A stretch of 49,474 nt of DNA, filler included, from Bipalium vagum (Eukaryota), in NCBI GenBank assembly GCA_037834085.1. It is 2 parts of 2 records of this genome, joined end to end, with 100 filler letters (N's around TTAATTAATTAA, not from the genome) between each part and the next. Parts side by side here need not be neighbours in the genome. Positions count along the whole stretch, not along the records: positions 1 to 28,189 come from JBBMKC010065432.1; 1 more part is not named here. One strand, given 5' to 3'. Every line of letters starts with the position of its first letter. Position 1 is the stretch's first letter. A program made the position numbers and the translations under genes. Positions 1,064 to 31,300 of the stretch are shown one piece after another. The notes beneath the pieces were generated by a model that saw nothing but the letters and a program-made list of their open reading frames with translations, had not been told where the DNA came from and did no database searches.

Positions 1064-2502
1064 CATTATGATAATAATTATCTTTAAAACGGAATGCCAA
1101 TCAGAGTGTCCCGTAACAGAGGCCATGTCCATAGCAACTTACAGGGCTATCCAGAAGAGGATTTTGTGCGCCTTGACCCACAACGTTACTGGTTCGCTAA
1201 TTGAGAAAGGAGAAAATATAAATAAATAATAACAATCGCCTGTATTAAAACAACGTTCCTACTAAAATAAAATTATTGCCATCAAACCGAGTGTCATCAA
1301 CATTTGCACGCTTAAAATCCCATAGACCTTTCTGATAAAAGCTGAATGAAAAAAGAGTTTCTTAACCGGTATCATGGCAACGTCAAACACATACCTAATC
1401 GAATGGACTTTGAGGAAAAAATGAAATTTGTTCCCCCTGAAGGATGATGCAAAGAGGAATGTGAACCTGAACGAAAGTGAAATTAATTAAAGGACGTTAA
1501 TCAAAATTAATTAAATGTCCTCCTTATTTCACACGAGAATTAAAGATGAAAACATTCATGTTCAAACAGATATACTATTTTTAACCAGAAGTCTTTAATA
1601 ACAAGATGCAGCAATCTGATTGGTGGCGTGAATTAGTTAAGTTACATTTATTCGCGGTTTTATTTGTGGGTTTATTTTTAGTATCAGATAATGTCAAGGT
1701 CAGTGGTGGAATCACTGAAACGAAACGGGCAGCAAAATTTGATCAATAATAAAAAATTATAATCCTTCAGTTAAGGGGCGTAAAATATTTCAAAGTATCA
1801 AAAATTTCTGACACAATCGAGGAGTGAATCAACTAATGGACTAGAGGCATTCCATCAATATTCTGAGATTGTTAACAATTACACCCAAATCTCCATTTCC
1901 TTTTAATGAGTTGCTGATATAATTTTATTGTTTCTTTTCTTAATCTGTCGAGCTGATGACCAGATTTAACAACGTTAGGGTTTTAGTGCTATATAGGATA
2001 ACCTAGCATCATGACGATATTTTCTCCGCGAGTAACCACAATGCCAGAATTGATTTCTGATTTGTCTTTTGAATTAAGGTTCATAGGATAAAGTTGATGT
2101 TTGACTGATTTCTGAGTCTTATTTTGAAAACCATTCTCCGTCAAAGAATCTACACTAAAAGCTGCCAATATCTTATTTTTTGGTTGAGTAGAATTTCCCC
2201 CAGAACATTTAGAGGTGTCTGTTCTGTAAATTAACAGTTTTATTTTATATGAGACTGCTTTTCAGTATTTTGCTTAATCACAGGGTTGTCCATAGTAGTC
2301 AGAATACCAAAGGATATTTTTTTACTTACCAAATGCTTTCCGAAAATTTTCCTTTTCAATTGATAACCTCTCTCACTTTTCGAAATAAAGACCTCTGAAT
2401 TGCCAAAATTCATTTCTTTCCTTCACTTCAACGAATGAATACAGACTTTGGAAACTTACAGTCAAACCAATGACAAATTCAGTGATCTCCTTTTATGAAG
2501 TA

Positions 2503-3240
2503 TATCATCGAACTTCTATATTGGACCACCACATTTGAAAAGTGGTCTGGAACCAGAAGTTGGCACAAAGTACCAGAAACATTATTCGACGTTGACAGAT
2601 AAAAAAACCATAAAACCGTGTTTGGGTACTTATAAAGTGCCTTAGTAGAAAACATCTAAAATAAAACAACGATAGGTCCAATCAATAATGAGTGATATAT
2701 CTCACCGTTTTTGAATCAAATAATTCGTACTTTTTGTTTTATTCCATGTTCTTTTCGTAAATCCATCATGAACTTACTTTTAAAGCAATGAGACAGTTTT
2801 ACATTTTGCGACAGATACGGCTTCGTGAGTTCACCCAAACTGAAAAGATGTTAAAGCGTCAATGATATCGGGTATCTTTTCAGAATCCTCGATATATGAG
2901 TACGACTTCACCATTTTATCTTATTGAAGCAGTGCAGGTTCTCTGTCCAATATCTGATCAGTAGATTCTTTTAGATCAGCGACAGCTTCCACTTTCTTTA
3001 CCAATGATAATCTTTGACAAAACGATTTGTTCAACATGTTTTAGTGGAATCCTATGAAATTGACAATATCATCTTTTTCTTAATGCTATTGTTTCGTCAT
3101 TCTTGATTGTGAAAAATCTCAAATACCAAAATGTTATATTAAGGATTTTATTTTTATATGAAATTATCGAGAAATATGATAATAACAAATTAATGGTGCA
3201 AATGTAGAAGTTGGTCCGATTATAGAAGTGGCCCAAATCA
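2503..3240 (-). mobile_element. Decayed pogo/Tigger-like element
   Basis: Inverted-repeat pair AACTTCTATATTGGACCA (~2511) / TGGTCCGATTATAGAAGT (~3212). Minus-strand remnant MLNKSFCQRLSLVKKVEAVADLKE...PDIIDAL resembles the pogo/Tigger N-terminal HTH region. Frames are broken. Confidence 0.5.
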
Positions 3241-3277
3241 GAAAATGGCTCATAAATGAGTCATAATATGAGGTTAC

Positions 3278-6200
3278 CTACGAAGTTGAGGTTTTGAAAA
3301 TCTGTAAGCGGAAGTTCAAGATATCATATTGCTAGTAGTGTTAAAATGGTGTGTTACGACCAAGACCAAAATCTTAATGTTGAATATCGAATGAACCCAA
3401 TTTGGTTTCGATCTTTTTCAATTTTATAAATATTGAATATCGAACATTGAATATCGGCGTAATACTTCATTTTAACACTACTTACAGTTTTTTTTCATTG
3501 ACTTTTCATCTCAATTTTTTATTTTTTAATTATTATTTTTGATTTTTTTATAAATTCGAATTTTGTGAATTTCATGATTTATGATTGTAAAACATTACCC
3601 ATCAATCTATCTTTTTTTTTAAATGGATGAAAAATATTTTTGTGAAGTTTGTAAAACATATCAAACTATAACAAGAGTAAACATTTAAATACAAACATAC
3701 ATTTTAAAAATAGTACTAATAAAAATACTCTATCACTAATGAAAACATTAATCTAAGTACTAATGAAAAAATAAAAGAAAAATATCAAAATTTTTCTAAA
3801 AAACAGGGGTGATTAAAGATTTGGGGCTATTCACAATCAGCTATTCTAGATAATAAATTTTTTTAAAAAATTTACAACAGGAAAATATCCAGGAGAATTA
3901 CATTTAAAATCCTTAAACCCTATTAATAAAAAATGCTGTGCACCAATTTACCAGAACAGGATCAAATAATATTAAACTTTTAGAAAATAATAGAAAAGTT
4001 TTAGGAAATCCAATTTTTTTTCTAATTCCAAAAACTTATTCAATACCAATAAACAGAACAGAAACGATATTTTTCTAAATTTTTTTCAAATCATGATTTT
4101 AAATTTACTTGAATTGTTCTGTGAATATGGAATTGATACAACATCAAATTTATGAAAAATTAAACTTACTGTTTGTTGGTATTCTTATTGGAAATCTTGA
4201 ACGAAAAATATTATACAATCTGAAAACTTAAAAATCAATTTAACCAAGTTATCATTTAATAGAGAATTTACAATAATATTGATTGTACATGAAAATGAGT
4301 ACACAATCAATGATGCTATAAATTTTAGAACAGCAAATAAGTATCCTATTTTTGATTGATATAATATTTATAGGAACTATTTTATAGTTGATGAAGACCT
4401 TTACTGAAAATTTTTGTTAAAAGTTATAAAGGAACGGATATAATATTTAAAGGATATTTTAATTCATATTTTTATTATAATTCTGAAGGAAAATATTCAA
4501 GTAAATGTAGAGAAATCAGTGGGAATATTAATTTATGAAATTATACTTTTTTATCGTTAATTAAAAAATGATGAATTAATAGAAATAGAAATTTTTATTA
4601 AATCTTTTTGTAAAAATTTATTTTACAATTTAAAGTTCTCAAGATTTTTCAATATTTTATTATAAAAATTAAAAGATTCAACGACGTTGTCAAGGCCTTT
4701 GTTCAAAAATTTTTTAGATTATGCTATAAAAGATAATGATGAAAAACAAAACGACGTTTATGGAACATCTTCAATGTGTAAATCAGCTGTCCTATTTACC
4801 CAAAATTAGAAATTGACATATTCTCAAATCAATTATTGAGAAATTAGAAAAAATAAAAATGGAAAATTTTATGAATGAAAAAAAATGTTGAAGATTTATA
4901 AAAACATTTTGAAAAATTTAAATATACTTTTGTAGATTCTCATTTAAAATTAGAAAATATTTTTATTGGAGGACTTTTACGAATTGGAACTTCTATTATG
5001 ATAGTAATACCAACTTTTGGAACCAATTTATTAATTTATGTTCCTGCTGCAACATCAATTTTTGGACCTGTAAATTTATTTATTGGAGAAACAATTAGTA
5101 TAGGAATTACTTTTCAAAAGAAAAAGATATATCGGGAAAATGGGGCTACAATAGAATCATCATTTAATAAACTTTATATATTTCAATTAAAAGCATTAGA
5201 ACATAAAATATTATAAAATTATTACATAAAATATATGTAATGAAGAAATTGAACAAACGAAAATAATTCTTAATGAATGTAAAGAAAATATTACAAAAAT
5301 AAAATCAGGAAATATTATTAAAAATCAAAATGAAGAAATTAAAAAGGATTTAAAACGAAGTTCTCATGATGCAATAGCAGAATGCAAACGCAATTTTCTC
5401 CATGCGGGAGAAGAATTGAAATAGTTGAAAACCGATTATAATGCAATAAGCTCATACAGATCTAGCAAAGCTGTCAAGGTCTTCGACCGATCCAACACAG
5501 TAGTCAAAGCTTTTATGCGATCCCGCTGATTCGATAAATTTTAAAAAATAGATGTGAAAAAAGTACTAAGAGGCTTAGCCTACAAAAAACAAAATTCAAT
5601 TGATCTTAAAAAATGACTTGAAAATTTAAAAAATTAATAGGAACAAAAAATTAATTTGACACTAATCAATTAATTCAATAGAAAACAGAAAGAGGATTTA
5701 AGATTTAACATATTTTCATTAACCACTTACTGGTCCTCTAAGAAATTAATATAAATGATAAAGCTAATAAGAAAAATATAATAGATGGACCACATAGTGG
5801 TTGGAAGATTCACAATAGGTTTAAGTGTACAAACTACTTCACTATTTTTAACTTTTGATTTATATACTTCTTTATAAACACCAACCAATTACTGGAACAT
5901 TAATAATAAATGAAATCCGATTTTTGGTTATTAAAGAAGATTGAAAAGCATTTTTAAAATATAATAATCCAAAAGATCCTAAATCGAATGATGAAACATT
6001 TTTTGAATCAACTGAAAATTTAAAATTAATAATAGAAGGAATTTTAATCTAAATAGAGACACGATATTTAAAGTAGAAGATTTGAGTAATTATCTTCAAA
6101 TAATAAAATTATCAAAATCTAGTTTATTTATATTAAATTTCGACAAATTTTAAAATAAACATTTACATCGAATCTCAGTTAAATTACCGGATTTCCCCGA

Positions 6201-9200
6201 AAATCCGCTCCTGGGTTATTTTTGCAAAATTAACCTTGTTTAAGAAAGAAATTATTCCAAAGTATTTACATTAAAAATATAAAAATCTAATAAAAATTAA
6301 ATATAAAATTAAACAAGATTGACAAGAATATAACATTTATAAACCGAAATATTTAGCTCTTCAATTTGTAAATTTAAGAAAATAAAAAGGTGGTCATGAT
6401 AATGTTCATCATTTAATTTTAATAGATTTAAATAAGTTAAAAAAATAAAAAGCATATTCTGATTAAAATATTTTCTTTCTAAAAATGGAAGATTCTCTAC
6501 AAAAAATATCAAATCTTTTATCTCAAATATTTTCAACTTCATTTTAAAAATAGATAAAATAAATATTCTAATTATAAATGGAAACAAAACTTCCTATTGA
6601 AATGTGTAAAACGGCTGTAAATCTTAATAAAAAATGTTTCCTTGTCTTACAATCTTGTATTCAAAATGACTAAGAAAATCATGTTTTTGAAAAATTCCAT
6701 TTTTCTACTATTGAAAAATTTTTTTTTTAATTTTTTTTTGAGGAAACATGTGTTTTAACATATTCTTCCATGTATTTAAATATAAACTAATTTAAAGTAA
6801 TTATAATTATATATTTTCATCATTTTATGTATATTACAGGGGTGGCTCCAAAGATATAGACGACATCGTATATTACATTTAGAAAAGAATTTATTTGATC
6901 CCTCTGAAAAAAAAATAAACAGAAGACTAAGTAGCTATGATAAAAATAATTGTGGAAATTATTATTTCAATGAAATAAAGAATTATCTAAATTTAATTAA
7001 ATATGTCAATGGTTGTTTTAAAGCTAAAAATTTTGAAAATATTAAAACACGATATGATAAGTACAATAAAAAATACAGTATGGGAAGTGTTATAGATTTT
7101 ATAAACCAAAATATATACTTGATCAATTTAAATCTTTAATAAAATATTTGTGTGCTAAAAAAGCTGGTGGACGATAATGTTGATTATTTAATTTTAAAAA
7201 TTTCAAAAAAATAAAAAAGAATCAGTAATGAAATTATTTGAAAATGTTAAAGTTAGATTTGATCTAGATTCTGATTTAAATATTTTATTTTATTTTTCAA
7301 AGCAATGAAAGAATTTCTACAAAAAATATGAAATTTTTTATCTCAAAAATTTTCAACAACATTTTTTGTAGAAAGTTAAGAGAAACCTATAACCACTAAA
7401 TCTTGATCCAAATTTTAACTATAAGTTAGCTTTAATTTATTTTTCAACTTATAATTTTAAATATGTTTAATTTTAATGAAAAATAACAGAATAGATGTAA
7501 CTGTTACAAATTCTAAAGGAAATAAAGAATCTCGTAAGATAAAGATAACTCTAGGAACATATGAAGTTTCTGATATATCTGCATATATTTAGAATGGATT
7601 TAAAAGTATAAAAGAATTTGAACCATTAAAATCAGAAGAGTTTATGTAAAAATTAATTATAATCCAATTTCTTCAAACAGTGTAATGAAAATATCTAAAG
7701 GTTGTATTCTTTCTTTTCCAGAAAATTCAATTGGTGAATTAAAAAAAAATCTTATAAAGAAGGTTATTATGAATCAAAATTAGTAAACATTTCAAAGATA
7801 AATAAAATCATGATTGATTGAAAAATTTAGAATGAGGATTTTATAATGATAGAAGAACAAATATTATTTTTGATTTTCTTTTGAATGCTGTTCCAAGAAG
7901 ATAGAGAATCATTGATAGACCAAAATTCCCAATTTAACATCTTTTAATTACAAAAGAAAAATTTAATAAAGTTTAATGGAGAAGACATCAGTTTTACTAC
8001 TTATTTGAAGCAGACTAAACCTGCTGTCAACAAAGCTTGTTAAGCAAAAAACAATGAAAAAAAATTCTAACACTAACTAAAACATAAATTTATTGCATAA
8101 GATAAATATTAATTTATATTATTTCCGTTAAATATTATCATTTTAGGTATGCTGTACCAAAAATTGCTGTACAAATCAATAATAATTAATTGTTTGTGAA
8201 TATGTTGACCTATTCATGCTTCACTTTAGGTTGATAACCACCATACAGAATGTCTGAAATTATTTTCCAAACATTTTCTATAATATTCAAATCTGGTGAT
8301 GTTCATGGCCAATTCAGGACTTGAAAAGATTGTGTTTTCGAATATAATTGAAATCGTTTTGAAACATGGATTGGATAATTATCCGGAATCACATGACAGC
8401 CTTCATGACAATCGAGATTGATAATGGGTACATCGAAGTCTTTGAAAAGACTAATGTATTTTTCAATGTCTTTTTTTCCTTCCAATATTTTGACAGCAAG
8501 TAGACCGTTTGGCACAGTCATATCCCACACCATAATTCCTCCACCTTGATATTGACGTTTTTGACATGGAGATGTTTCCCCCTTCTTAACATACGAAAGT
8601 ATCATATATCATAAAAGTCTTTAAAATATCAATAATTATTTAATACCTGTTGTCAGTTCGTCAAGACTGAATCTTTTTTCATCAATATTTGACATCAATA
8701 TATTTTATTCCAAACAATATTCTGTCTAATCCACTGTAAAACCAAACGATTTCTTTTCAATTTATGTTTATTAGAAAGCATAATTTTCTGTGCAACCTTT
8801 TGATACGCATCTCATTCTTCAGCATCCATTTATTTAGTGGACACATCTATATTGGTTAACTGCAATACTTTGTTGCATGCAGTCTTATGATAATTATCAG
8901 TCTCTTTTTGATATAGGTCTTCTGTGGTTAAGATCATCAATCTTCCTTATATTCCTTTTTGGTTCTCGCTCTGCTTGTGAGTTTTTAATTTGTATGTTAA
9001 AATAGTTTTAATTGCATTCTTTTTCATATAAAAATCTACGATTCACTTAATGAACATTTGTATATGACAATATTTCTTAATTCCTTTGAATATATACCTA
9101 AAATTTTATTTAAAACTATAAGTAAAAATTTACTTACTGTCAGAAAAATTTTTTCCAATAATATTTTATAAAATTTAAGAAATTACATTTGTGATATATT

Positions 9201-9278
9201 ATTTAAACAAGTCTTCAAAATGTAGATATATAACAAGTTTCTAATGAGCAAACGAAAACAATAAATATTAACAAGTTT

Positions 9279-9309
<31 letters not shown>

Positions 9310-12300
9310 CTTTTATCTACCACCTTTTATCTCAGAAATTACAAGTGTCAGAAAAATAGTTTCCATCAGTATATGATATTTTTAAAAAAAGAATTATTTA
9401 TCTATGATAGTTTAATATATCTATTTCCATGTACACTGAAAATTGCGCCTAGTATTTCTTTTTCAATTAATAATAAATGATCACATGTATCTTTTTTAAA
9501 ATATTTTAATTTTACATTTGAAAATTTTAATCCTATATTTCATATTTAACCTGGAACTGAATGACAAGGAATCTCTACCTTGAATGGCAAATTGAAAATT
9601 AACAAAAAATCATGAAAAAAAATGAAAACAGTAAAAATCAAATTGGATTGACATTTGGAAAATAAAAATTAATAAAATGAAAATCAATGAAAAAATCAAT
9701 AATCAATGAAAAAATGTGATAGTAGTGTTAAAATGAAGCGTTACTCTGGTGTTCGATATTCATAAAATTAAAAAAATCAAAATCAAATTGTGTTTTTCCG
9801 ATATTCGCTATTCGACGTTGGGGTTTGTGTCTTGGTGGTAACACCCCATTTTAACACTACGATGGCTTTACCTTACAACTCTGTTACTCGTAATGTTAGT
9901 TGAAGTTGTCTTTGGTATGGAAACTAAAGCTTTTAATTCAAACGATAGCCTTACTTTGTTGGGTCGTGTGGGGACCGTACTGTGCATCTGTAGAGAAAAT
10001 ATATTAAAATTTTATTAATTTCATTATGGTCTTCACTTGGCTGTTGAGGACCATACATCGGGTAGGATGCATCTTTGAAAGAGCGTCAAATATACATTAA
10101 TAAATATCATTTTTACTGAGATGCTGAGGTCCGTAAGCTCCGAGCGGAACATCTTGAAAGAAGTGATCAATAAATAATTGTTAATTGTCTTTACTTTGGT
10201 TCTGAGGACCGTAAGGACTGTTAAAGGCATCTTTAAAGAAAATATTAAAGCGAAACATCAACTATATCTTCTGACTTGGTTGCTGAGGTCCGTAAAAGCC
10301 TTCGGAGGTTCGTCTCAGAAAAGATTAATACTCATTTCATATTTAATCTACCTTGGCCTTCTTGTTGCTGTCCTGTTTATTAAAAAAACTGAGTTAAGCT
10401 TTATAAATTTTATTAATAATTAAATTTGATTAATTCCTCGTTGAGTCTGAGCTCCGAATTGAGTTTGTAACTTTAAAATTGCTTTACTGACAACCTCTGT
10501 CATTACAACTGAGCAGCCTCTCATTACAATTATATTATTTCATTCTGTCAGCGCGTATGGGACATTCCTTATTCAAGGGTAATAGACCGTTATCCTGCTG
10601 GGCATCCGGCAAATTTCGCAAAAAACATTTACGTCGCATCTCAGTTAAATGACCGGATTTCCCCCGAAAAAAGCCCCGGGATTATTTTTGCAAATTCAAC
10701 CTTTCCAAAAATAAACTCGGTTGAAAATCAGCCCCGGTTTATTTCTGAGAATATTTCATAAAAGAATTGCTTTCAACAAATATCTCCAAATTTTTAGGTA
10801 TTTTACATTTTGATGGATTTTTTAAACCTTTAAATATAACCAATGTTTTGGAAAATGTACCAGCGAATGATATGGTTACAGCCACAGTAAATCTCGTTTT
10901 TTCATCACCTGTGGTACGAAGATCGGTATTCTGTTCTCCTTTAACAGAAATGGTGCTCCATCTCATCATATCTGCATAGGTCGCCATTTCGTCCATATTA
11001 AAAAAAATTTCTGCCTCTTTCTTTTAAAAAAATTTTTAAAATTAATTTAATCTATCAAAAAATATTGATAAAACAATTTTATCTTAAAGCGAAAAACTTT
11101 AAAAAAATAAGCCTTGGTCCTATTTTCGAGTGGGATTATTTTCGGGGAAATCCGTAAGCAAAAATATAAACGAACTTTTAAATGTAATGTAATTATTACT
11201 CCGGTAAATAAGGTAATTATAATTACATGAAAATAAAAGCATTAAAATAGGTAATTAAAACAAGTGGCGCCTAAAGGAAGTTATAATTCATTTATCTATA
11301 TCATTTAATTCGGAAATCCGACTCTGAAAATTAATACTTTTAATTTGATATCCACGACGATCAGTTGAATTGACAACGATTTATTAATTTTATCACACTA
11401 TAACACATAAAAGCAAGTTTTCTTCGATTTGATTGGTTTCTCATATTCTCAACTGTTTTTTCCTGTCTCAGCTTCGGCTTCTGTTTTTGATTTTGTAATT
11501 TTCTTTTTATTTACTCCATTATTACCAATTGATCTTCTATCACCCAATGATGTTAATGTAATATTTTCTTGTTGATATAAATAAATGTTATCGCTATCTG
11601 ATTTCATATAATTGTATTGTGTCATCCTGAAATTCCTGTGAATTTTGGCCAAGAAAATTTAAGAAAAAGTTCTAATATTTTCTTGGTCTTGCACGGTCAT
11701 CATTTTCAAAGCTGAAGTTGCCACTCTTAGATTTTTGAAAATGTCTTTTTGTTTATCTTTCACTTACAAAACTATCGCCCACGGCGAAGTAAATATTTCT
11801 GGTTGCTTCTCATGCATTATGAAGTGTTCATGAAGAATGCAAATTCAAATACGTTCAACTATGCCCTGGAACAAATAACGTCTCATTTAAATCGAACTGC
11901 CTACCTAAAGAAGAATATGGAAAAGCCAAATTGGCGCTTCAGTGTGACATATTAAAACAATTATTATCATAAAACTGATTGATTAACAAATCTTTGAAAT
12001 GATAAAGCTGAAATCCGTCATTCTCTTTGGGCCAGCCGATAATTCAATGCTCAATAATGAAACACGGAGAGAGCAATGGGAAAGTGACGACTGGACGATG
12101 AAGATTTCATAGATTATTAGGGGGTCTGGTCAGATCTCCACCTGCTCTCACATCTCAAAACATTTCTTAATAAGCTGTGACTTCAGAGGAGTTATTTCAA
12201 AAGCCTTACCCAAATCACTTTATACAGTAATAATGAAAGGTGAAGTGTATCGATCTTAAGGGATGTAATACTGAATAATAAGATTTTTTAAACATTGGCG

Positions 12301-12673
12301 TGTTGATTGTTTCAGAGGCCGTCGTCTTACCTTGATACTGGGCACCGTATGGTAAGGGTCCCTGATCTGAAGATAGAAGGCAATAAAATCGACCAAAACG
12401 CCGACGTCCTTACATTGTTGCGGAGATCCGTACTGGTAATCTGGAAACATGAAAATGAGACTGGTAATCAGATAAAACATTCAACAAACATTGATAAGCG
12501 GGCTGGTCTTGTCGGGGTTGTCGAAAAAAGAGTATTAGAAGCGAGAACCGGTTTCAAAATGAACCTACTGTTGCTTTCATTCTCGTTCGGGTTTGGGCCT
12601 GCACAAGGGGACACAATCAACGATCCACATAATTAAGATCAAAGGCAAAATCCTTCTTACGTGACAGTTCCAT
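3278..12673 (-). CDS. Micro-exon gene encoding a low-complexity YGPQ-repeat protein (3' end unresolved)
   Basis: Predicted coding exons (minus): 12673-12661 (ATG in CCATGG), 12598-12569, 12507-12490, 12440-12414, 12366-12331, 10470-10437, 10372-10352, 10313-10276, 10230-10195, 10152-10117, 10072-10037, 9987-9955, 9923-9872, 3301-3278. Probable 5'UTR exon 12785-12741. All acceptors are AG; all donors are GT except one GA (10436). The spliced frame is open: MELSRPNPNENESNNQPAYQYYQYGSPQQYQGPLPYGAQYQVTNSIRSSDSTRTATRRPRRTSEGFYGPQQPNAFNSPYGPQNQNVPLGAYGPQHLNASYPMYGPQQPNAQYGPHTTQQISIPKTTSTNITSNRVVRFSKPQLR. The repeat core varies mainly at third codon positions. The join between the 12.3-12.7 kb and 9.9-10.5 kb exon clusters is inferred from phase and composition. 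Confidence 0.75.
4900..5320 (+). pseudogene. Decayed hydrophobic/coiled-coil ORF inside the Maverick
   Basis: ORF 4998-5216: hydrophobic stretch followed by ...ESSFNKLYIFQLKALEHKI, continuing in a shifted frame as EEIEQTKIILNECKENITKIK. Resembles by eye an accessory ORF of invertebrate Mavericks; assignment is pattern-level only. Confidence 0.35.
7480..8018 (+). pseudogene. Maverick minor capsid (penton)-like gene remnant
   Basis: Broken frames read KIKITLGTYEVSDISAYI ... EGYYESKLVNISKINKIMID ... GFYNDRRTNIIFDFLLNAVP ... IIDRPKFPI ... FNGEDISFTTYLKQT*, following the motif order of Polinton minor capsid proteins. Multiple stops and frameshifts. Confidence 0.65.
8100..9372 (-). mobile_element. 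Tc1-like (DD34E) element nested in the Maverick, decayed
   Basis: ORF 8303-8605 GGGIMVW...VIPDNYPIHVSK...VLNWP, continuing past a stop as TSPDLNIIENVWKII, gives the Tc1 QDN.P.H and WP..SPDLNPIEN.W motifs. Confidence 0.8.
10653..11154 (-). mobile_element. Internally deleted pogo-family element in an intron of the micro-exon gene
   Basis: TIRs CCGGATTTCCCCCGAAAA / TTTTCGGGGAAATCCG-TA. ORF 10739-10996 (N)MDE...KGEQNTDLRTTGDEKTRFTVAVTISFAG...LVIFKG is the pogo DDE_1 signature. Confidence 0.85.
11490..11650 (-). pseudogene. Possible Maverick protein-primed DNA polymerase B C-terminal remnant
   Basis: MKSDSDNIYLYQQENITLTSLGDRRSIGNNGVN resembles the pPolB C-terminal pattern (RS..H.IY....K..LS..DDKR.I...G.T). 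Short, pattern-level match. Confidence 0.4.
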
Positions 12674-14398: not shown

Positions 14399-16321
14399 AT
14401 GTTTGCAACCCTGCCGAAGATCAGTGATCCGGACACTCATGAAAGATTTGGAGTCGGAGTGCTCCTGGGAACGGTAAGCAAGCTTTGATTTGTGCTTGGT
14501 AGGACGGTGCTGACGGTCTTGTTTTTCGATAGGGAACCTTTGCTAACTGCTACGAGCTCTTTGACAGCAACAACAAGCTCTTTGCTCTGAAGAGAGTAGC
14601 CAAACAGAAATTGTTGAAAAACCCCTTACTCCTGCGCCAGCTCAAAGATGAGATCGCCATTCACCGGACCCTGGACCACGAGAACATTGTCAAGTTCCAC
14701 AGCAATTTCGAAGACAAGTACTTCTTCTACATGATTCTGGAGATCTGCATGCAAAAGGTTTGTCATGAGGCATTGGATTTGAAAGGTTTACCATCATTTT
14801 TCCCTTCAGTCGCTGAGGGAGCTGAAGCAGTGTCGGTTCAAGATCACGGAGCCCGAGACCAGATACTTCTGCCGCCAGTTGATTTTGGCGTGCGACTACC
14901 TTCACATGAGAAGGATCATCCACCGAGACCTGAAGCTGGAGAACGTCTTTCTCAATTCCGAAATGGTCGTCAAGCTCGGAGATTTTGGACTGGCAGCTCA
15001 ACTGACGTCCGACCACGATCGACGGCGAACGTTTTGCGGAACGCCAAATTATGTCGCTCCTCATGTGCTGGCGAAGAAAAGTTACAGCTTTGAGGCCGAC
15101 ACGTGGTCGCTGGGGGTGATAGTGTAAGTTTTTTGCTTTTGATTCCGACAAAATTGACTGTCCATAGGTTCGTACTGCTCACAGGATCGTACCCCTTCGT
15201 TGCTGATTCCTTGTCGGAAATGTACAGCCAAATAAAGAAAGCGCAGTACGTTATCCCCGACGAGGTGGGTCATTCGGCTCAGGAAGTCATTCGGTCACTG
15301 CTTCAGATCACCAATATCCCCACCATGAAATCGTTGCTGGAAATGCCATTCTTCAAAGAGTACACTCCAAACGTGTTACCCACCTCAGTTTTGTCGAGTG
15401 CCCCTCGTTTTGACAGCATCCTGACCCCTGAGCCCGTTAAAATGGAAACGAGAACTTTCTACTCCGAAGCTGGTATGGCCTCCGAATATTGCTTCAGTGG
15501 TTACAAGAACGATACCGATAAGAGGAACGGTCTCACCAATGACTTGCTGGTGCAGCTTCGAAAGCTGCTGACAAATGTCGCGGTGTTGGAAGATCTGCCG
15601 TCACAAATCTCCAGACAGAAGTGGCACGAGACTGTGCAGGACCGTGCTTTGACCCCCGTGTTTTGGATCACCAAGTGGCTGGACTACTCTCTCAAGATGG
15701 GCTTTGGGTACCAACTGAACGACTCCTCGGCCGGGGTGGAGTTCCTGGACAAGTCCCGCCTGATTGTGACGACCAACGACGATAACATTCAGTACATCGA
15801 TCCGGACGGTTGCGAGGCGCTGTACACTCGCCTAAATTTCCCCAATCAACTGTTACAGAAGCTGGAGTTCCACTCCTACTTCAAAAGGTATATGTCGGAG
15901 AAGCTGCAGACAGTAAGGGTTTTCTTGGTACTAACAAACTGATTCCTGTTTTCTAAGGTCGGCAAAGACGTCAGCAACTCAGAAAAGGATTCCATGGTCC
16001 GTCTGCCATTCCTGTTATCGTGGCAGAGGAACGAGAAGGCCATCATTTTACTGTTGAACAGCGGCACGACGCAGGTGAGTGATTTCTTTTCTTGTCAGAA
16101 CAATACCATGACACAACATCCTCCTCGTTCAGATCAATTTCTTCAGTGACCACGTCAAGGTCATCTTCTGTCCCCATATGAGGTCCGTGACCATTGTTGA
16201 TGAAAAAAAGGATTTCAAAACGTACGCCTTTTCCAAGCTTTACCAAAGTGGAATGACAAGATCACTGAAGAGCCGCATCGAAAAGTGCATGGAGGTGATG
16301 GAGAACTGGGTGAAGAATTAG
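14399..16321 (+). CDS. plk: Polo-like kinase (PLK1-type: kinase domain + two polo boxes), ~554 aa, 6 coding exons
   Basis: Exons 14399-14473, 14533-14757, 14810-15123, 15168-15912, 15958-16074, 16133-16321 (1665 nt, open frame). GT-AG introns of 59, 52, 44, 45 and 58 nt. Motifs LGTGTFANC, FALK, HRDLKLEN, DFGLA, RRTFCGTPNY; polo box 1 WITKWLDYSLKMGFGYQL; polo box 2 QINFFSDHVKVI. AATAAA at ~16470. A possible acceptor (cacag, 14375) leaves room for an extra upstream exon. Confidence 0.93.
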
Positions 16322-16899
16322 GCTGAGTCCTTGTTGTTGACCTTTTCGTTTCACAAAATATATTTTCAAGTTTTAAATGTTTCCGTTCCTCACAAAATCG
16401 AAGGTGGAGAATACTTTTTATTTTTATCCAATCAGAGTTGAGTAAAATCTAATTAAAATCCCATTAATCAATAAACCTGTGCTATTAATAACTTTTCTTT
16501 AGTTTTCCTGGAAAATTATTGTTCTCCTTAGCCCTAGATTGTTTAGTCAACATTTTTGAAATGGACCTTAGAACCTATTTTCAAGGTTAAAAGGTCAGTT
16601 TTTCTTTGGAAACAAGTTAACCAGTTGACAAACAATAAGTTAAACAATCATATATTTTTAATTAAATATTCATTTTTCAATAAAGATATTCATTGCTCCT
16701 TTCTTTCATTTTTCAATTGCTTCTCCAATTTCTTTATATCAGCCACGACGTCTTCCTTCTTCAATCTTAACCTTCTTGTTTATTAGGTTTCTTTAGATCT
16801 TTCTGTCTTTTGAATAAAGTTTCTTTAAAAATTTTCCCTTCATTACATAGTCTGTATATACCATCTTGAGGGTGAAGAATTATTATTCATTTTCAAAAA

Positions 16900-17275
16900 G
16901 GTTATTGTTTGTTTTTTGATTTATTTAAACAAATCTATTAAAAATGAGTTTTCTGTAACTCATTTTCATAAACCTTTCTAAATCTATAATATCAAGAACT
17001 ATTGGATTTGTATTCTTTTAATATTATTTTATTTCATAATAAAATCGATTAATAAGTATTTCATCTGTCCATTTTATATTTAAAGATTCTTACCCGATCA
17101 CCAAAATGATATTTATGTTTAGAGATTAGAGAATAATTTTCATCTTTTACAAACTTTTATTTCTCTGGTTCGGCCAAAGCCTTTGACAATTTTGTTGGAT
17201 CTTTAAATGCTTCTTCAGGAGTAATTCCAAGTGATGAATGTGATAGACTATTAAAAATATTTATTAAATTTGGTA
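16900..17275 (-). pseudogene. Maverick retroviral-like integrase C-terminal remnant
   Basis: Minus strand reads FNSLSHSSLGITPEEA ... GDRVRIFKYK ... WTDEIL, matching the Polinton integrase pattern (YN...HSS...TP; GD.VRI; WT.EIF). Confidence 0.65.
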
Positions 17276-17689
17276 ATAAGTTCAACCATTTTCTGTTACT
17301 TTGTTCCGTTTGTAAAGACGACGGTACAAAATGACTTTAAAAACAAATCCTGTCATGAAAAGAGGTCAATTGATGTTACGTGGACGCGTAGAAAACTTGC
17401 TTATGTGTCGACCAAAGCGTCTGTTGATCAAAATCAACAACCCCGATCATCCAAACAGATTATGGTTCCTTCTCATGAAAAGAATCTCATTCAAGATCAA
17501 AACTTTCAAGAATGATTAATGATCTTCTCAAGTTCCGGCTGTTATGGACGCCAAATTTCCATAATCTGTAATGGCCATTATTGTTGTGAATAATAAAAGC
17601 CATTTATGAAACCGAAAACCAAAGTACAGTCATTCAATACAACTTCACCATCGCTTGGAACCAAGTAAGACTCTAGCTACAAAACAGAT

Positions 17690-20019: not shown

Positions 20020-20600
20020 ATGTCTGATTTCTGTAACCCATTTTCATAAAAATTTAACACTTACTTCTTTTCCATTTAAATCAATAATTCAATAACCAAT
20101 TGGATTTGTAAAATAAATTTCATTTATAAGAAATATTCCATTTGTCCATTTTGGTGTATATCCTTTTCCAAATTTTTGTTATATTTAAAAATTCTGGATT
20201 TCTTTTATAAAAAGCATTAAAAGACTTAAGTAAAATTCTCTTGGATATTTTCCTGTCTTGAATTTATTTAGGAATCTGTTGTTCGTAATTGTTGACTGTA
20301 AGGCACTGCCAACTTTGTTGGCAAATTGTTGAATATAACCGCCTTTTCTTTTTAAAAAAATTGAAAGTTTTTCTTGGATATTGATTGATTTATTTGTTAT
20401 TTTTCATTCATACTTTCTTTCGTACTTTTCATACTTTAAATGTATATTTTAGAGTGTTTTTCATTTTTTTATTGTTTTGAAATATATTTATTACCAAAAT
20501 CACAAAAGTAAGTTTCTCTGATTACCATTATTTATTAAAATCTAAGTTTAAAAATTTTCTTAAATCCTTTTTTTTTAATAATTTTATTACTTTAATTTGA
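20020..20600 (-). pseudogene. Second Maverick integrase remnant
   Basis: Minus strand KFGKGYTPKWTNGIFLINE...TNPIGY.IIDLNGKEVS.KFYENGLQK matches the Polinton integrase C-terminus (F.KGYTPNWT.EIF...TNP..Y...D..GE...FYE.ELQK). Confidence 0.75.
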
Positions 20601-22791: not shown

Positions 22792-25781
22792 TTATCCTTG
22801 CATCTGTTGAACGAAGCCCTCAATGACATTCTTCAGTCCAATTGCAGTGGGTCGGTCGTCTGGGATTGGTTTGAGACACATGGCGATAACATCTCCCACG
22901 ACAGTATGGCACTCACTTGGAAACTCATAATCAATGCACATCTCGTGTCGAAGTATATTTTTAATTCTGGAGGTGCTTTTCCCGTTAAAAGGAGGCTCGC
23001 CTGAAAGGAAAACGAGCAAAATATCATCTACCCAAAGACATGTGAATAGTGACATGAATCGATCAAGAAAACTACCACCGGGAACGTACCTGTGACCATT
23101 TCGATCAAAGTTGCTCCAAAAGACCAAGTATCGGCTTTATTTCCATATTTCTCCTTCCGCAAAACTTCCGGTGCCGCCCAATTGATGCATTCGCTTTTGG
23201 AGCCTTTCTCCCCTACGAGACACTTGTTTTTGTCGTACAAATATTTCGAAAACTCGAAATCGGTCAGCTTGGCATTGTCATTGGCATCTAGTAGAATGTT
23301 GGAACCTGAAAGAGAAGACAGGCGCATGTTGAAACCAAGTAAAAATCTCAAAGTACAAGACACGAGCTTTGTGTACAAAATCAATAGACGACTACTGCGA
23401 CACGGAGCCAACAAAGTAAATGCACGAAATTCCGAAATGCAGTTTGCGTGGTGCACGAACGAATTTAAGATCACTGAAGCAATTTAAACAAGCAATTATT
23501 TGAAATTCGTTTTGAAGGTCATTGAGAAAGATATTTTGCCTCATCGAGTGAGGACCGTGTCTGGACGACAGCTTGAACTCGACAGATGACGTTTTGAAGC
23601 AGTATTTGAATGAAGATGTCAAATCTTTTCCCCTTTACCAGCAATACAACGATGGCAAACCTGCTTGCTTGACTAAGAGAAGCTGGTAGACCATCGATTT
23701 TAAGCAATGAACAGCTTAGTTAATTGATGACAAGGAAGCGCGTGAAAAAATCGGACGAGCCAATCGATTTCTTGGTGGTAAATGTCAGACTTCTAAAGAA
23801 ACCGTGCGTCAAATATTGTGAAAATGTGCAGTAAATCATCACAAAAGAGTTCAAGATTAAAGGGTACAGCGATGAGCAATCGGATTTGATGCCGGAAAAC
23901 TGATGGTGCTTTCGAAGAGATTCCTTACTTCGGAGGTTAAGATTATTTGGGAAGATGGAAAATATTTCACTTTTGCCTGGAGTAATGCTTCATAACATAA
24001 AGTATATCGTGCTGATGACAATGAAAGCGTTCCATTTCTGAAAAGGGGTGTTTCAGTGGTACATACAAGAATAGAGCAGCTTATAATTAGAGACGCCTTA
24101 GGGATTTGAAAAAGATTGTTCCACATTGTCGAAAAGTAAAGAGGCTAAAACTATTTTCCGGGCTGCCTTTACAAGGCACCATGAGTCAAATGAAACATTA
24201 CAAAGAGATGGTTCGACGATATTAACATCCCATTTGTACAAGGAGCAGTGGGTCCCTCAAACATTCCCAAGGCTCATCCATTGGAGACTTTTTACCTCGA
24301 TCGTGTACATATTAAGGGCTGGGAAGCCACAGTCCACAACCACCTCACAACGAAAATTCGAGAAATCGATATGGAGATTGTCAAAACGATGATTCCCGGC
24401 GTGAAAAGAAGATTCGTAAAATCAAAGAAGAAAATAACAATATTATCTTGAGACATGTTAGAATAGGGTCCCTTCGTTTTTGATCATTCACTTCATTGGC
24501 AAACCCTAAACGGTTTCTGATAATCAATATTTCACAATGATAAATAATTAAAAATATTGGATCAATAACAAAAATTCTGGCTCGATTTAAAAAATAAAAC
24601 AACTTTATTCATTGGTCACATGATGATCATTCCTCTCTACAAGTGGTTTCCAACTTTCTACAAGCGGTTCGAACCCATATTGATAGAAATCTCCTGATTT
24701 TCCTGGGAAGAAGACCATAAAATAGACCATTCGACAGCTTCACCAGAATGGAACGTCTTACAACTCGAAACACAGTGCAGAGACAGGAAAAACGAATATC
24801 ACAGGTCAATTGTTCTTTTCACATTATCGTTCCAGTCTCAAAGTCCTCCTCACTGACGTATTTTCATATGGCAGAAAATTCGGCCGATGGATATTTGAAG
24901 AAAGACAAGAAAGTTTGTGTGGCGATGTTTCTGGAGATTCACGAAAGTCCTGTATGACCAGACCTGGTTCAATGGTAATTCTGGTGGGTTTTCCTGTCCT
25001 GTGGAAACAGAAAACAGATCCTGTTCACAAACGTATGGGTAAATGCTAATGATGACTTGTCCATTGATGGTGTTGTATGTCGTTCAGCTTTCCATTTCTG
25101 TCGACCCATTGACACAAACTTTGTGAGGTCGGACATTCTATCATTAAACCTCTCTCTCTCTCTCTTTTCAACTGTCAACATTCTGCACTACAGATTGTTT
25201 TTATAGAGAAAGGGGGGGGGGGGAGCGGGCGTTAACAAAAAATTAAAAACGTAGCAAAGAGATAAAAAACGAAGTCGTACACTTCATGTTGCGGAAAATT
25301 ATTTTCAGCTCGTGTAAATAGTCCAGCGCCTCCAAAATTGGAATGGAATAGCCGAAGATCTTGTCGACGTTTCTCACTGGGAGATGACTGCTTAGAGAGC
25401 CCTGAAAAATAGAGAAAGAGATGATCGGAAAATGAGAGATAAAATAAAAAAAGAAAGCAATAGGTTCCAGGACGGACAAAACTCCGACCTGTCCCCACAA
25501 CCGCTGCGTCACTCACCCTTTCCATGTATTGGAGGCCGATGTAGAAATAGGTATTCATAAACATTGCATTGTAATGTACGAATTGGGGCTTCTTCTCCGA
25601 ATGGATTTTGAAGAGCGTGACGATGTCGTACTTCAGAAATTTTAAATCGGTCTTATCGTTGTCCAAAATGTACTCCTTGAGGACGATATCTTCAATCTCT
25701 GTACCTTTGCGAAGAGTTCCCTTTAAAATCTTGGCAAAGCGACCCGCGTGAATCTTTTCACCAATCTGGATGTGATCCGAA
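22792..25781 (-). CDS. STE/MAP3K-like protein kinase-fold protein, predicted pseudokinase (5' start not found)
   Basis: Exons 25781-25517, 25401-25281, 23305-23090, 23000-22792. GT-AG introns of 115, 1975 and 89 nt. Open spliced frame of ~269 aa: IHAGRFAKILKG...IVLKEY...LQYMERGSL...LDYLHELKIIFRNMKCSNILLDANDNAKLTDFEFSK...[37 protein letters not shown]...PDDRPTA. The first exon begins in phase 2, so an upstream exon is required. Confidence 0.85.
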
Positions 25782-26099
25782 CTGGGAAAGCCAAAATAAA
25801 CAATAATGAAATAAAAATAACACGATCGATCAATATGAGGATAAGAACTTGTTTTAGAAAAATAATCGATTTCATCTCGGTGTACCTCACAAAGTTATTT
25901 CACACGTTTGGGCATGTTCGAAATATTAATTTTCGTGGACCGGACCTGATCAATTATTTAATAAATGCTCGTTGGGAGTGAATTACCAGGAAACATACCA
26001 TGTTAGCGACAAACAACGTTCCTTGTTCCTTTGTTTCATATTGTATATTACGCTCTTCAAGGTTATCATAATTCGCTTTGTTTTAATTAATTCGATAAA

Positions 26100-28365: not shown

Positions 28366-31300
28366 TTATTGAATGTGGCCAGCAAATTTATTGGGATTTT
28401 CAATCTTGTTTTACTTATGTTGCTCCTCGGTCATTGGAATGCTTGCTTGCAGTTCTTGATCCCAATGCTCAGAGACTACCCTTCAGATAGTTGGGTGATC
28501 AAATGTAAATTGAAAGTGAGTTGACCAAGTCCGATTTATTTGGTAAATATTAATTAATGATTTATTCAATAAAATTGTGATTATGTCGATGAAAATCAAT
28601 GGAAACATACCCAGTTTCCTTGAATTATTATCACGTAATTATTCGATAACAGTTTCATGGGCCCAAACCACGGGTTTTCTAGCCAAATAATCATACAGTT
28701 ATAATCAAGAAGTTTGTGGCATTGGGAACATTGTATAAAATTTTGAAGATTATCATTTGAAACCTCTCTCGATCTCATCAAGCAACTTTCTGTGATGTTC
28801 ATTTGGATGGTCTGAGGTTATGTTATTGGAAAGGGTTTCTTGACATTTCATACATTGAGAAAAATCATCTCTCATTGGTGATCACAAATAATATATAAAT
28901 AAAAAGAGACAGTATTCTTCTAATTATTCGAAAGGTAAATTATGGTTACGCTTCGGATAATCGGAAAGACAAGTACAAGATGTACGACCTAAATTCATTT
29001 GAACAAAAAAAAATTATTATAACACGTTCTTCACTCTATCCTACAATACTTTCAATAGTAGTCGTTCTCCGTCATTGAAAACGCCATGTCGATGAACAAA
29101 GCTGCTGAGGTCAGCAATTCATTCATTCGCTGTTGCTGGTGAAATATCTTCTGAATGTTGTGCATGGACAAAATCGAAATTTGCATCTGCATTAGTAACA
29201 TTGTTTGCCTCTAAAGTGATCTGAAATCTCAATGTCATTAAGACTAAATGTTCATCTTTCTCTTCAACATTTCAAAAATCTATTTCCGATGGTTTTATTT
29301 ATTTTTTTAAAATCTAAGCAGAATTTCTAATTGTTACGTCTCTCTTTTAATTAGTTTATTTATTTATTTTTAAGAATTTTATTTATATTATTTTTATTTG
29401 TATTTATTAACAAATTAAAACAAAAAAAACAAACGAAAACAGCAAAAAAATCACAAAAAATTATTTTGTTTTAATGACAAACCACTTTATTGATCTTTTT
29501 AATATTTATTGATTGGGATGATCTGAGTGAAAAAGATTTCGAATTTTTGTTAATATGATCCTGATTTAGACTAAATTTTATCTAGGACGCTTACTGGTTT
29601 GACCAATATACCTGGGCACTGTTCAAAGCCATGTCACATATGTTGAGTATTGGTTATGGTCGCTATCCTCCCACAAGTATTTGCGAGGCTTGGATCACCA
29701 TTGTCAGCATGATGACAGGAGCCACTTGCTACGCTTTGTTTGTCGGTCACGCTGCAGCTCTGATTCAGTCCTTTGATACTTCCAAACGACTCTATAGAGA
29801 AAAGGTTGGTCGGCAATTAGAATTAGTATAAATAAANNNNNNNNNNNNNNNNNNNNNNNNNNNNNNNNNNNNNNNNNNNNNNNNNNNNNNNNNNNNNNNN
29901 NNNNNNNNNNNNNNNNNNNNNNNNNNNNNNNNNNNNNNNNNNNNNNNNNNNNNNNNNNNNNNNNNNNNNNNNNNNNNNNNNNNNNNNNNNNNNNNNNNNN
30001 NNNNNAAAAGAATTATATTAAAAATTATTATTAATTATTAAATATTAGAATTAAAAAATAAAAATATTAATTAAAATTGAATGAAAAACTTTAAATTAAA
30101 TCAATAACAGAACCAAATTATTTATAAAATTAAACGAGTCGTTTCCATAATTAATTAAATTACAAAATTTTTTCAAAAATGTTTGATCAAGGTAGTGCAG
30201 TCCTTTTAAAAAGTCTGTTCACCTCCTTTATCAAGTGTAACTTTTAATGGAAATGAATACAGGTTTTTTTCACTTCAATTTAAACTATTTAATGAATTGT
30301 CTAAAAGAAATCTTGGTGATGCTTGTTACCTTTGGATAACACTAGAATTCACAAAACAGTAAAAGTTCGAGATTTTGTGAAAAATTCAGGGCATAAGTTA
30401 ATTTTTTAACTCCTTCTTCCCCAATGATTGATCCAATTAAAAAGGTATTCTCAAAGGTAAAGTAGACTGCACGACATATTTTAGTCGAACATACAATAAA
30501 GGAGACCTTAAGGGATGTAATAAAAATATCAAGTAAAATAGTAACTGAAATGGATTGTAAAAAATATTACATGAATGTGAACAGAAAATGACCATCAACT
30601 GCTCCGGAAAACCGCCTATAATGTGCACTATGTCTAATGCAGTGTAATGTTTTATTATTATATTATGATAATACTTTTTCTGTTTTTATTTAACAGTTTA
30701 GAAAAAGATTATTTTGAAATGTAAATTAATAGTTTAAATTGAAATGTAAAAAGTTTAAATTAAAGTGAAAAACCAGTAAGTTCAGATCTTAAGCGCTTAA
30801 ACAAGCGGTCGCGTGCATATTTTCATATAAACTTCACAAAGTATCCCGTATTTTTCTTCGGTACTTTTTTCATAATAAAATAATGAATAAAAATCACCCC
30901 CAAACGATCCTTATCTGGGATAAATGTTGACATGTTTAGATCTAAAAAATCTGAATATATTAATATCTAATGAAAATTTACTCTAATAAATAACGATTAT
31001 TATATTAAAATGGATTAAATTTGATTTCAAAATTATATTAAGATTTGTGTCAATGAATCGATTTTTTATAAAATAATAAATATTACTTGTGTATACATAA
31101 TAAAAACTGAAGATTCAACAGTCTTTAAAGGTATATTCGAATTTTTCCATTTTATGGAAAACATTACTTCGTAGGCTGCTGAGAAAGTTTGTGGAATCTA
31201 ATACTTGAAAAAGACAAATTAAGCCAATATATATACTACTGGGGTTATCGATTGAAAAAATGGATTCCAGAAACATTCCCACTTGATAAGAATCTTGAAA

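Follow-up and report, generated by a model that had tools for sequence, protein, structure and literature searches.

The stretch of DNA analyzed here (the window; 49,474 nucleotides, filler included) comes from Bipalium vagum (GenBank assembly GCA_037834085.1) and consists of parts of two records joined end to end. Its minus strand carries a 17-exon gene model that runs from 12673 to 1143, comprises 270 codons with zero stops, and stays open across a large insertion. Judged by its sequence, the host appears to be a GRINA/Lifeguard (TMBIM)-type cell-death gene. The insertion is a 6,528-bp relic of apparent Maverick/Polinton type (3334-9861), which occupies what was a 36-nucleotide (nt) intron. 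It is gap-free and contains zero N, and the first N of the window occurs only at or after 12925, which rules out an assembly-gap artifact. The features of element and host are collected in Table 1.

Of the Maverick end motifs (AGT)2//(ACT)2 and (AG)3//(CT)3, the element carries the former except at a single base: the left end reads AGTAGT, and the right end reads ACTACG, the final base of which departs from the expected T, while the inner copies of the motif are perfect. The two ends align as terminal inverted repeats (TIRs) of about 205 bp (3335-3539 versus 9860-9659; 218 columns, 72.5% identity, E = 2e-25), with a local score of 225; the highest score among 278 control segments was 125. The hexamers that flank the element (3328-3333 and 9862-9867) agree at 5 of 6 bases as the two copies of a target site duplication (TSD), a level of resemblance to the left copy that is reached by 312 of 48,834 window hexamers. 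TIRs of this length fall in the 100- to 1,500-bp range of Mavericks, and the TSD agrees with their 5- to 8-bp (typically 6-bp) duplications, as given in the part of PMC10748475 that covers TIR length, TSD, and the 13- to 25-kb full length. In the sections of PMC8097293 that treat vertebrate fossil Mavericks, AGTAGT//ACTACT, combined with a 6-bp TSD, is the motif seen most often, 96% of the loci are degraded, and a table includes a fossil whose TSD copies likewise differ at one of six bases; the (AGT)2//(ACT)2 ends, the TIRs, and the 6-bp TSD are what those fossils have in common with the element described here. The ends named in the original prediction, which had been made from the same DNA, are thereby borne out.

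Each end also holds a second, inverted copy of its terminal 15-mer (3334-3348 and 3468-3482 on the left; 9721-9735 on the inner right). The outer 149 bp on the left and 141 bp on the right, bounded by these inverted 15-mers, fold into hairpins (z = -6.0 and 0 of 200 shuffles as good for the left; z = -2.1 and 4 of 200 shuffles for the right). Among the four 15-mers, 59 of 60 positions are conserved and 1 differs, and mismatches are rarer in the terminal 15-mers (1/30) than in the remaining TIR (19/103; Fisher p = 0.044). The TIR cores imply 7.5% substitutions. No further hairpin copy turned up in the window, and the hairpin-TIR pattern had 0 matches in the genome_contigs collection. For an inner inverted copy of the 15-mer, or for hairpins, within Maverick TIRs, an open-access literature search retrieved no description. 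Such hairpin ends may occur in invertebrate Mavericks.

Removal of the element and one TSD copy leaves a 36-nt intron on the minus strand that starts with GT and ends with CAG, as had been predicted, and the enlargement from 36 to 6,570 nt is indeed about 180-fold. The element begins at intron position +11 and leaves the donor hexamer unchanged. A distance of 4 nt from the splice donor, claimed earlier for the insertion, holds for the duplicated target and not for the element itself. Downstream of the rebuilt intron, the predicted 24-nt exon (3301-3278) was recovered in frame and in phase 2-2, although its own GT donor is weak.

Because the bare pattern of YAG, a stop-free exon of 3n nt, and GT occurs often (at 3,896 of the 19,460 random junctions), the evidence for the intron is carried by how strong its splice sites are. 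The scoring matrices were derived from 22 other modelled introns in one run and from the 8 introns of two other genes in a second. In the first run, 27 of the 4,297 GT sites score at least as high as donor 9871, and 14 of the 4,421 AG sites at least as high as acceptor 3302. Both rank within the top 1.3% of the window's GT or AG sites. A comparable donor was found near 68 of 19,683 random junctions and a comparable acceptor near 121 of 19,460; after training on 8 introns, the respective counts were 161 and 201. Both sites are of U2 type (GT donor and YAG acceptor) and of typical strength. Since a strong donor and a strong acceptor are jointly unlikely by chance, there is good support for an ancestral intron of 36 nt. 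Its assignment to the size class of its neighbors stands with a qualification: 16 of the 24 modelled introns measure 31 to 66 nt, so that 36 nt lies at the low end of the small class, and 7 of the 24 exceed 250 nt (the list omits the intron of about 2 kb in a minus-strand kinase gene, the donor of which is ambiguous).

The host model begins with a chain of eleven micro-exons that encode the first 104 residues, 61% of which are P, G, Q, or Y, arranged in YGPQ-type repeats. Ten of the eleven micro-exons are in phase 1-1 and measure 18 to 36 nt, and many carry one such repeat apiece; the chain looks like the product of exon-by-exon duplication that built a Lifeguard-type tail. This tail stands ahead of a KSIR..FIRK signature, a feature conditional on the exon model. 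The model ends, within the window, in the first helices of a putative Bax inhibitor-1 domain, the remainder of which was not found in the window. In the portion of PMC6719933 describing GRINA/TMBIM3/Lifeguard-1, the protein likewise has a P/G/Q/Y-rich N-terminal tail (two-thirds there, 61% here), KSIR..FIRK, and a BI-1-like domain; in human, however, the tail is encoded by two exons, whereas here it is encoded by a chain of 13- to 36-nt micro-exons.

Table 1. Features of the element and of the host gene model in the window
Feature	Position	Strand	Remarks
Start codon and 11 micro-exons	9955-12673	-	13-36 nt; all end in phase 1
52-nt exon, phase 1 to 2	9872-9923	-	Weak acceptor after 31-nt intron; strong donor
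Host intron, 5' part	9862-9871	-	GT donor at 9871, then TSD
TSD, right copy	9862-9867		5/6 identical; intron positions +5 to +10
Right TIR core	9721-9861	-	113/133 aligned columns equal left core, 4 gaps
Maverick/Polinton-type relic	3334-9861		6,528 bp; GC content 23%; no stop-free frame above 110 codons
Nested Tc1/mariner transposase remnant (DDE_3)	8252-8596	-	Pfam PF13358, E 1e-10
Putative minor capsid (penton) remnant	7306-8015	+	Several stops and frameshifts; 3' half has homolog in contig L001
Internal duplicate of 7091-7419	6329-6578	+	Score 187; 0/200 controls
Small DNA transposon end fragment	6141-6251	+	Copy at 10607-10715, 81% over 97 nt, E 6e-20
Broken ORF with hydrophobic, glycine-rich core	4832-5304	+	L001 homolog, 54% identity, E 4e-25 and 4e-8
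Broken ORF	4464-4773	+	L001 homolog, tblastn E 2e-6
Decayed coding stretch	3702-4090	+	Kin to second relic at 20041-20440 (minus)
Left TIR core	3334-3482	+	Likeness to other end extends to about 3540
TSD, left copy	3328-3333		Flank comparison
Host intron, 3' part	3302-3333	-	TSD and 26 nt ending in CAG
24-nt micro-exon, phase 2-2 (FSKPQLR)	3278-3301	-	In frame; strong acceptor, weak donor
221-nt candidate exon, phase 2 to 1	2003-2223	-	No family match; least certain part of the model
Three exons opening putative Bax inhibitor-1 (TMBIM/Lifeguard) membrane domain	1143-1466	-	Pfam PF01027

Relative to the host gene, the open reading frames (ORFs) of the element are antisense. When genome_contigs was scanned with ORF 4902-5213, 193 stretches matched the pattern and 1 of them was confirmed. 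It lies in contig L001, a 2,449-bp sequence filed in a bacterial metagenome-assembled genome (MAG). Three stretches of the element recur in L001 with their order unchanged (4464-4773, E = 2e-6; 4832-5304, E = 4e-25; 7747-7952, E = 4e-9), while the best match of the reversed-window control to it had an E value of 0.095. Because the three ORFs are collinear with L001, they are real genes of one family. In L001 itself, positions 600 to 2318 hold three Maverick-like ORF remnants at 45% GC and the terminal motif is absent; the contig is probably eukaryotic mobile-element DNA that was misbinned in the bacterial MAG.

Attempts to name the genes gave little. The DDE_3 remnant is the sole Pfam match in 12 six-frame read-throughs covering the element; the ends of this nested Tc1 were not located, the best candidates being equalled by 127 of 500 controls. 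No Maverick protein was named by Pfam, PDB, PHROGs, NCBIfam, protein sets, Atlas, or fold searches; in the Atlas search with the two longest plus-strand ORFs, nothing was usable, all leads being below 0.9 or absent. Polymerase, packaging ATPase, maturation protease, and major capsid were not detected, with no Pfam match to them in the 12 read-throughs, where heavy decay could mask remnants. From its motifs, we read the 7306-8015 stretch as a putative remnant of a minor capsid protein (single jelly-roll penton), an assignment that no tool confirmed: library searches gave no match to it, and a full HMMER search of 1.84 billion representatives, made with a single frame of this stretch, had 0 matches at E 0.001. 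A low-confidence single-sequence model of the half-capsid of L001 is all-beta but has a predicted local distance difference test (pLDDT) score of 39.5, and fold searches with it were uninformative, returning no significant match. The 3702-4090 stretch is related to the relic at 20041-20440 (DNA score 145, reached by 0 of 400 controls). The latter, and hence the former by homology, may resemble the C terminus of a Maverick integrase; this was confirmed by no tool, and the relic at 20041-20440 had no match in Pfam or among phage records. Outside the element, another decayed stretch on the minus strand (17073-17327), without a Pfam, PDB, or plasmid match, may likewise resemble the C-terminal part of a Maverick integrase.

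The element is thus a long-dead, gene-dead, deleted fossil that has acquired a Tc1 remnant and other fragments. At 6,528 bp including the nested fragments, it does not reach the 13 to 25 kb of full Mavericks, and no core gene was confirmed in it; because of this shortfall it is not an intact member but at most a deletion derivative, and an intact, autonomous Maverick is ruled out by length and gene content. We hold it to be very probably a deletion derivative of a Maverick, because the end motif, the TIRs, and the 6-bp TSD fit published Maverick features, its membership by genes being putative. The Maverick/Polinton label of the original prediction is therefore kept on the strength of the ends, with the amendment that no gene match accompanies it and that the element is a deleted fossil.

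Long introns are not peculiar to the insertion site. The host gene has others of 1,958 nt (12330-10373), 1,054 nt, and 536 nt, and the gap-free 4,461-nt intron of an HCN gene has the same donor hexamer as the donor at 9871. This HCN channel gene (28381-38762, plus strand) was used as a long-intron control; its introns measure 1,070, 3,734 (containing a gap), 130, and 4,461 nt. Long-intron splicing appears routine in this genome, and, given the other kilobase introns in the host and HCN genes, no special splicing switch is needed. With the insertion, the ratio of the intron to the mean exon rose from about 0.95 to about 173, and the intron crossed the transition at about 250 nt between intron and exon definition that is set out in parts of PMC9225289 and PMC5762160, the thresholds being those of human and fly. 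According to the relevant section of a review (PMC8624252), long introns can also be defined cotranscriptionally; therefore, length alone shows no switch. In Drosophila, splicing of long introns under exon definition is both rapid and accurate, as stated in part of PMC5762160. The earlier alternative of either exon definition or a truncated transcript was consequently overstated and incomplete: skipping of the 24-nt exon, which keeps the frame, introduces 0 stops, and costs 8 residues, is a third outcome, and the long introns elsewhere show that no special switch is needed.

On balance, the best explanation overall, which we consider reasonably probable, is that of a tolerated Maverick-type insertion: the relic would be spliced out, and the gene would still be expressed at full length. 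In this scenario, a Maverick/Polinton-derived element would have integrated through a 6-bp staggered cut into the 36-nt intron, as knowledge of the family suggests. The present anatomy shows that, with the target duplicated, the donor hexamer stayed in place together with the intron's final 32 nt, so that both splice sites survived. It is equally evident that the element lost most of its genes, gained further fragments besides the Tc1 remnant, and fell into decay. Most likely, the host would transcribe through the relic and remove it cotranscriptionally or by exon definition, just as its other kilobase introns require. The 24-nt exon may be partly skipped, because it is flanked by introns of 6,570 and 1,054 nt and has a weak donor; transcripts that include it (9872 to 3301) would be expected alongside others that skip it (9872 to 2223). 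Both isoforms would be full length and 8 residues apart in the cytosolic tail, with a possibly lower output of the downstream exons.

Several results are consistent with this explanation. The open 270-codon model links the P/G/Q/Y-rich head to the Bax1-I match, which is the layout known from GRINA. On the host-sense strand of the element, no acceptor (0) reaches the strength of 3302, and no strong cryptic exon of phase 2 (0) occurs; its 17 AATAAA sites amount to 2.6 per kb, those of the HCN intron to 3.1 per kb. Simulated neutral decay at 7.5% left the four downstream exons unbroken 35 times in 5,000 runs and 11 times in 3,000, and none of 3,000 runs kept all 17 exons. If the insertion dates back as far as the TIR cores imply, these runs argue for continued selection; if it is young, they do not.

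Other results weigh against tolerance of the insertion by a full-length gene, and they concern age, gene identity, and splicing. (i) The better-conserved terminal motifs leave room for an insertion of lower age than that read from the TIRs. With decay set to 2.8%, the downstream four exons survived 400 of 3,000 runs and the three exons on the Bax1-I side 1,015 of 3,000; with 1%, those four survived 1,479 of 3,000. The exon model was moreover chosen for its open frame, which makes the decay test partly circular. (ii) The PF01027 (Bax1-I) match (E = 2e-4, profile positions 2 to 58) scores 21.6 bits against a curated cutoff of 34.1, and a word-index protein search with the host protein in the correct frame scored 0 of 65 candidates. 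(iii) Acceptor 9924 and donors 3277 and 2002 have weak scores; as many as 1,356 of 4,297 sites score as high as donor 3277, which is lower than all 22 training donors. (iv) In Caenorhabditis elegans, large intronic Polinton remnants accompany reduced downstream expression, as reported in the part of PMC11414722 that deals with them.

The reduced downstream expression leads to the rival that survives best, truncation or gene fission, which we judge unlikely: transcripts of the micro-exon block would end inside the element, or would join 3301 and stop past the weak donor by way of an AATAAA at 3152, and the membrane half would be weakly expressed or have a start of its own. Retention of the intron leads immediately to a stop, and read-through of the 24-nt exon gives FSKPQLRR and then a stop, one codon past a donor that ranks below all those used for training, with the AATAAA at 3152 beyond it. 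The precedent of eri-6/7, with upstream exons up and downstream exons down (PMC11414722, in part), points the same way, as do the 17 AATAAA sites of the element, but their density is the same as in other long introns. Furthermore, the downstream exons are intact and phase matched to the upstream block, and the two halves jointly make up the known GRINA layout; we lean toward counting the intact downstream Bax1-I exons against truncation.

More doubtful still is a bypass, in which the main mRNA would join 9955 to 1466 (phase 1 to phase 1) and the element would sit in an 8.5-kb intron, the 52-, 24-, and 221-nt exons belonging to a minor or abandoned isoform. Such an mRNA is stop-free too (171 codons) and has a more compact head, and the weak acceptor 9924, the weak donors 3277 and 2002, and the lack of a family match for the 221-nt exon would all be accommodated. 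However, donor 9871 and acceptor 3302 rank among the strongest sites of the window, the 52-, 24-, and 221-nt exons together restore the phase exactly, and the 221-nt exon is open over 73 codons despite AT-rich DNA. Least credible is the idea that two hairpin miniature inverted-repeat transposable elements (MITEs) of about 145 bp, or a composite element, surround captured DNA, for although both ends are bounded by hairpin-forming inverted 15-mers, no tool named a Maverick gene, and polymerase, ATPase, protease, and major capsid went undetected, the 6-bp duplication is shared by the outer ends only, end similarity extends beyond the hairpins, no second hairpin copy was found in the window, three internal ORFs are collinear in L001, and the end motif with its 6-bp TSD is the commonest one in vertebrate Mavericks.

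Returning to a tolerated insertion, a bolder extension of it can be formulated, which we regard as speculative and rather improbable. Insertions on both sides would have turned a constitutive, intron-defined 24-nt micro-exon into an alternative one, and the hairpin 15-mers would be the minimal cis signal by which an already gene-dead Maverick was still mobilized in trans, conserved as they are while the rest of the TIR drifted. If true, this would amount to a dated birth of alternative splicing, with an empty allele that can be reconstructed to the base.

The closest known case is C. elegans eri-6/7, where, in the account given in part of PMC11414722, a large Polinton remnant likewise lies between coding exons and is described as an intronic insertion. 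Expression data are available there (upstream exons up, downstream exons down), and other strains have inversions that are rescued by trans-splicing. The element described here is more decayed, no inversion was seen, and the empty intron can be rebuilt exactly. The pertinent parts of PMC9683012 and PMC8504770 mention no Maverick within a micro-intron, and an open-access literature search found no publication about a Polinton whose micro-intron can be reconstructed. Since fossil Mavericks, Polinton remnants in genes, and length-dependent pairing of splice sites are already known, the case serves as an illustration rather than a surprise, unless a linked splicing change is seen in RNA. It illustrates a route to kilobase introns in a genome with introns of 31 to 66 nt, namely, a single integration that spares both splice sites. 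Empty and filled alleles defined to the base would furthermore allow a test of how a micro-exon behaves after a 180-fold growth of its flanking intron.

Other introns of the host gene also contain possible transposon relics. Within the 1,958-nt intron, a small DNA transposon relic (10607-11154) has 23-bp inverted ends (10654-10676 and 11132-11154; 3 of 500 controls were as good) and a 94-codon ORF that may be a pogo-type DDE piece. A weak Pfam match to the Mos1 transposase helix-turn-helix (HTH) domain on the minus strand of the same intron (11000-11900, E = 0.006) suggests a mariner remnant. The modelled 1,054-nt intron (2224-3277, minus strand) has weak inverted repeats (2512-2528 and 3212-3229) and several strong splice-like sites, and represents either a transposon relic or unmodelled exons. 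As a pogo-like relic, 2512-3229 was rejected: the candidate is weak, with 14 of 500 controls scoring equally and no Pfam match.

Elsewhere in the window, a Polo-like kinase gene (14533-16326, plus strand) stands out with about 50% GC in a window of 30% GC; it has four introns of 44 to 58 nt and is open over about 530 codons, in frame starting after the kinase start. The minus strand carries the protein kinase gene with the ambiguous donor mentioned above (22792-25894) and an ORF with a homeodomain (46768-47364; Pfam E = 3e-15). Finally, a dispersed repeat family with copies 60 to 71% alike (135-385, 24654-24721, and 43028-43298) is probably another old transposon.

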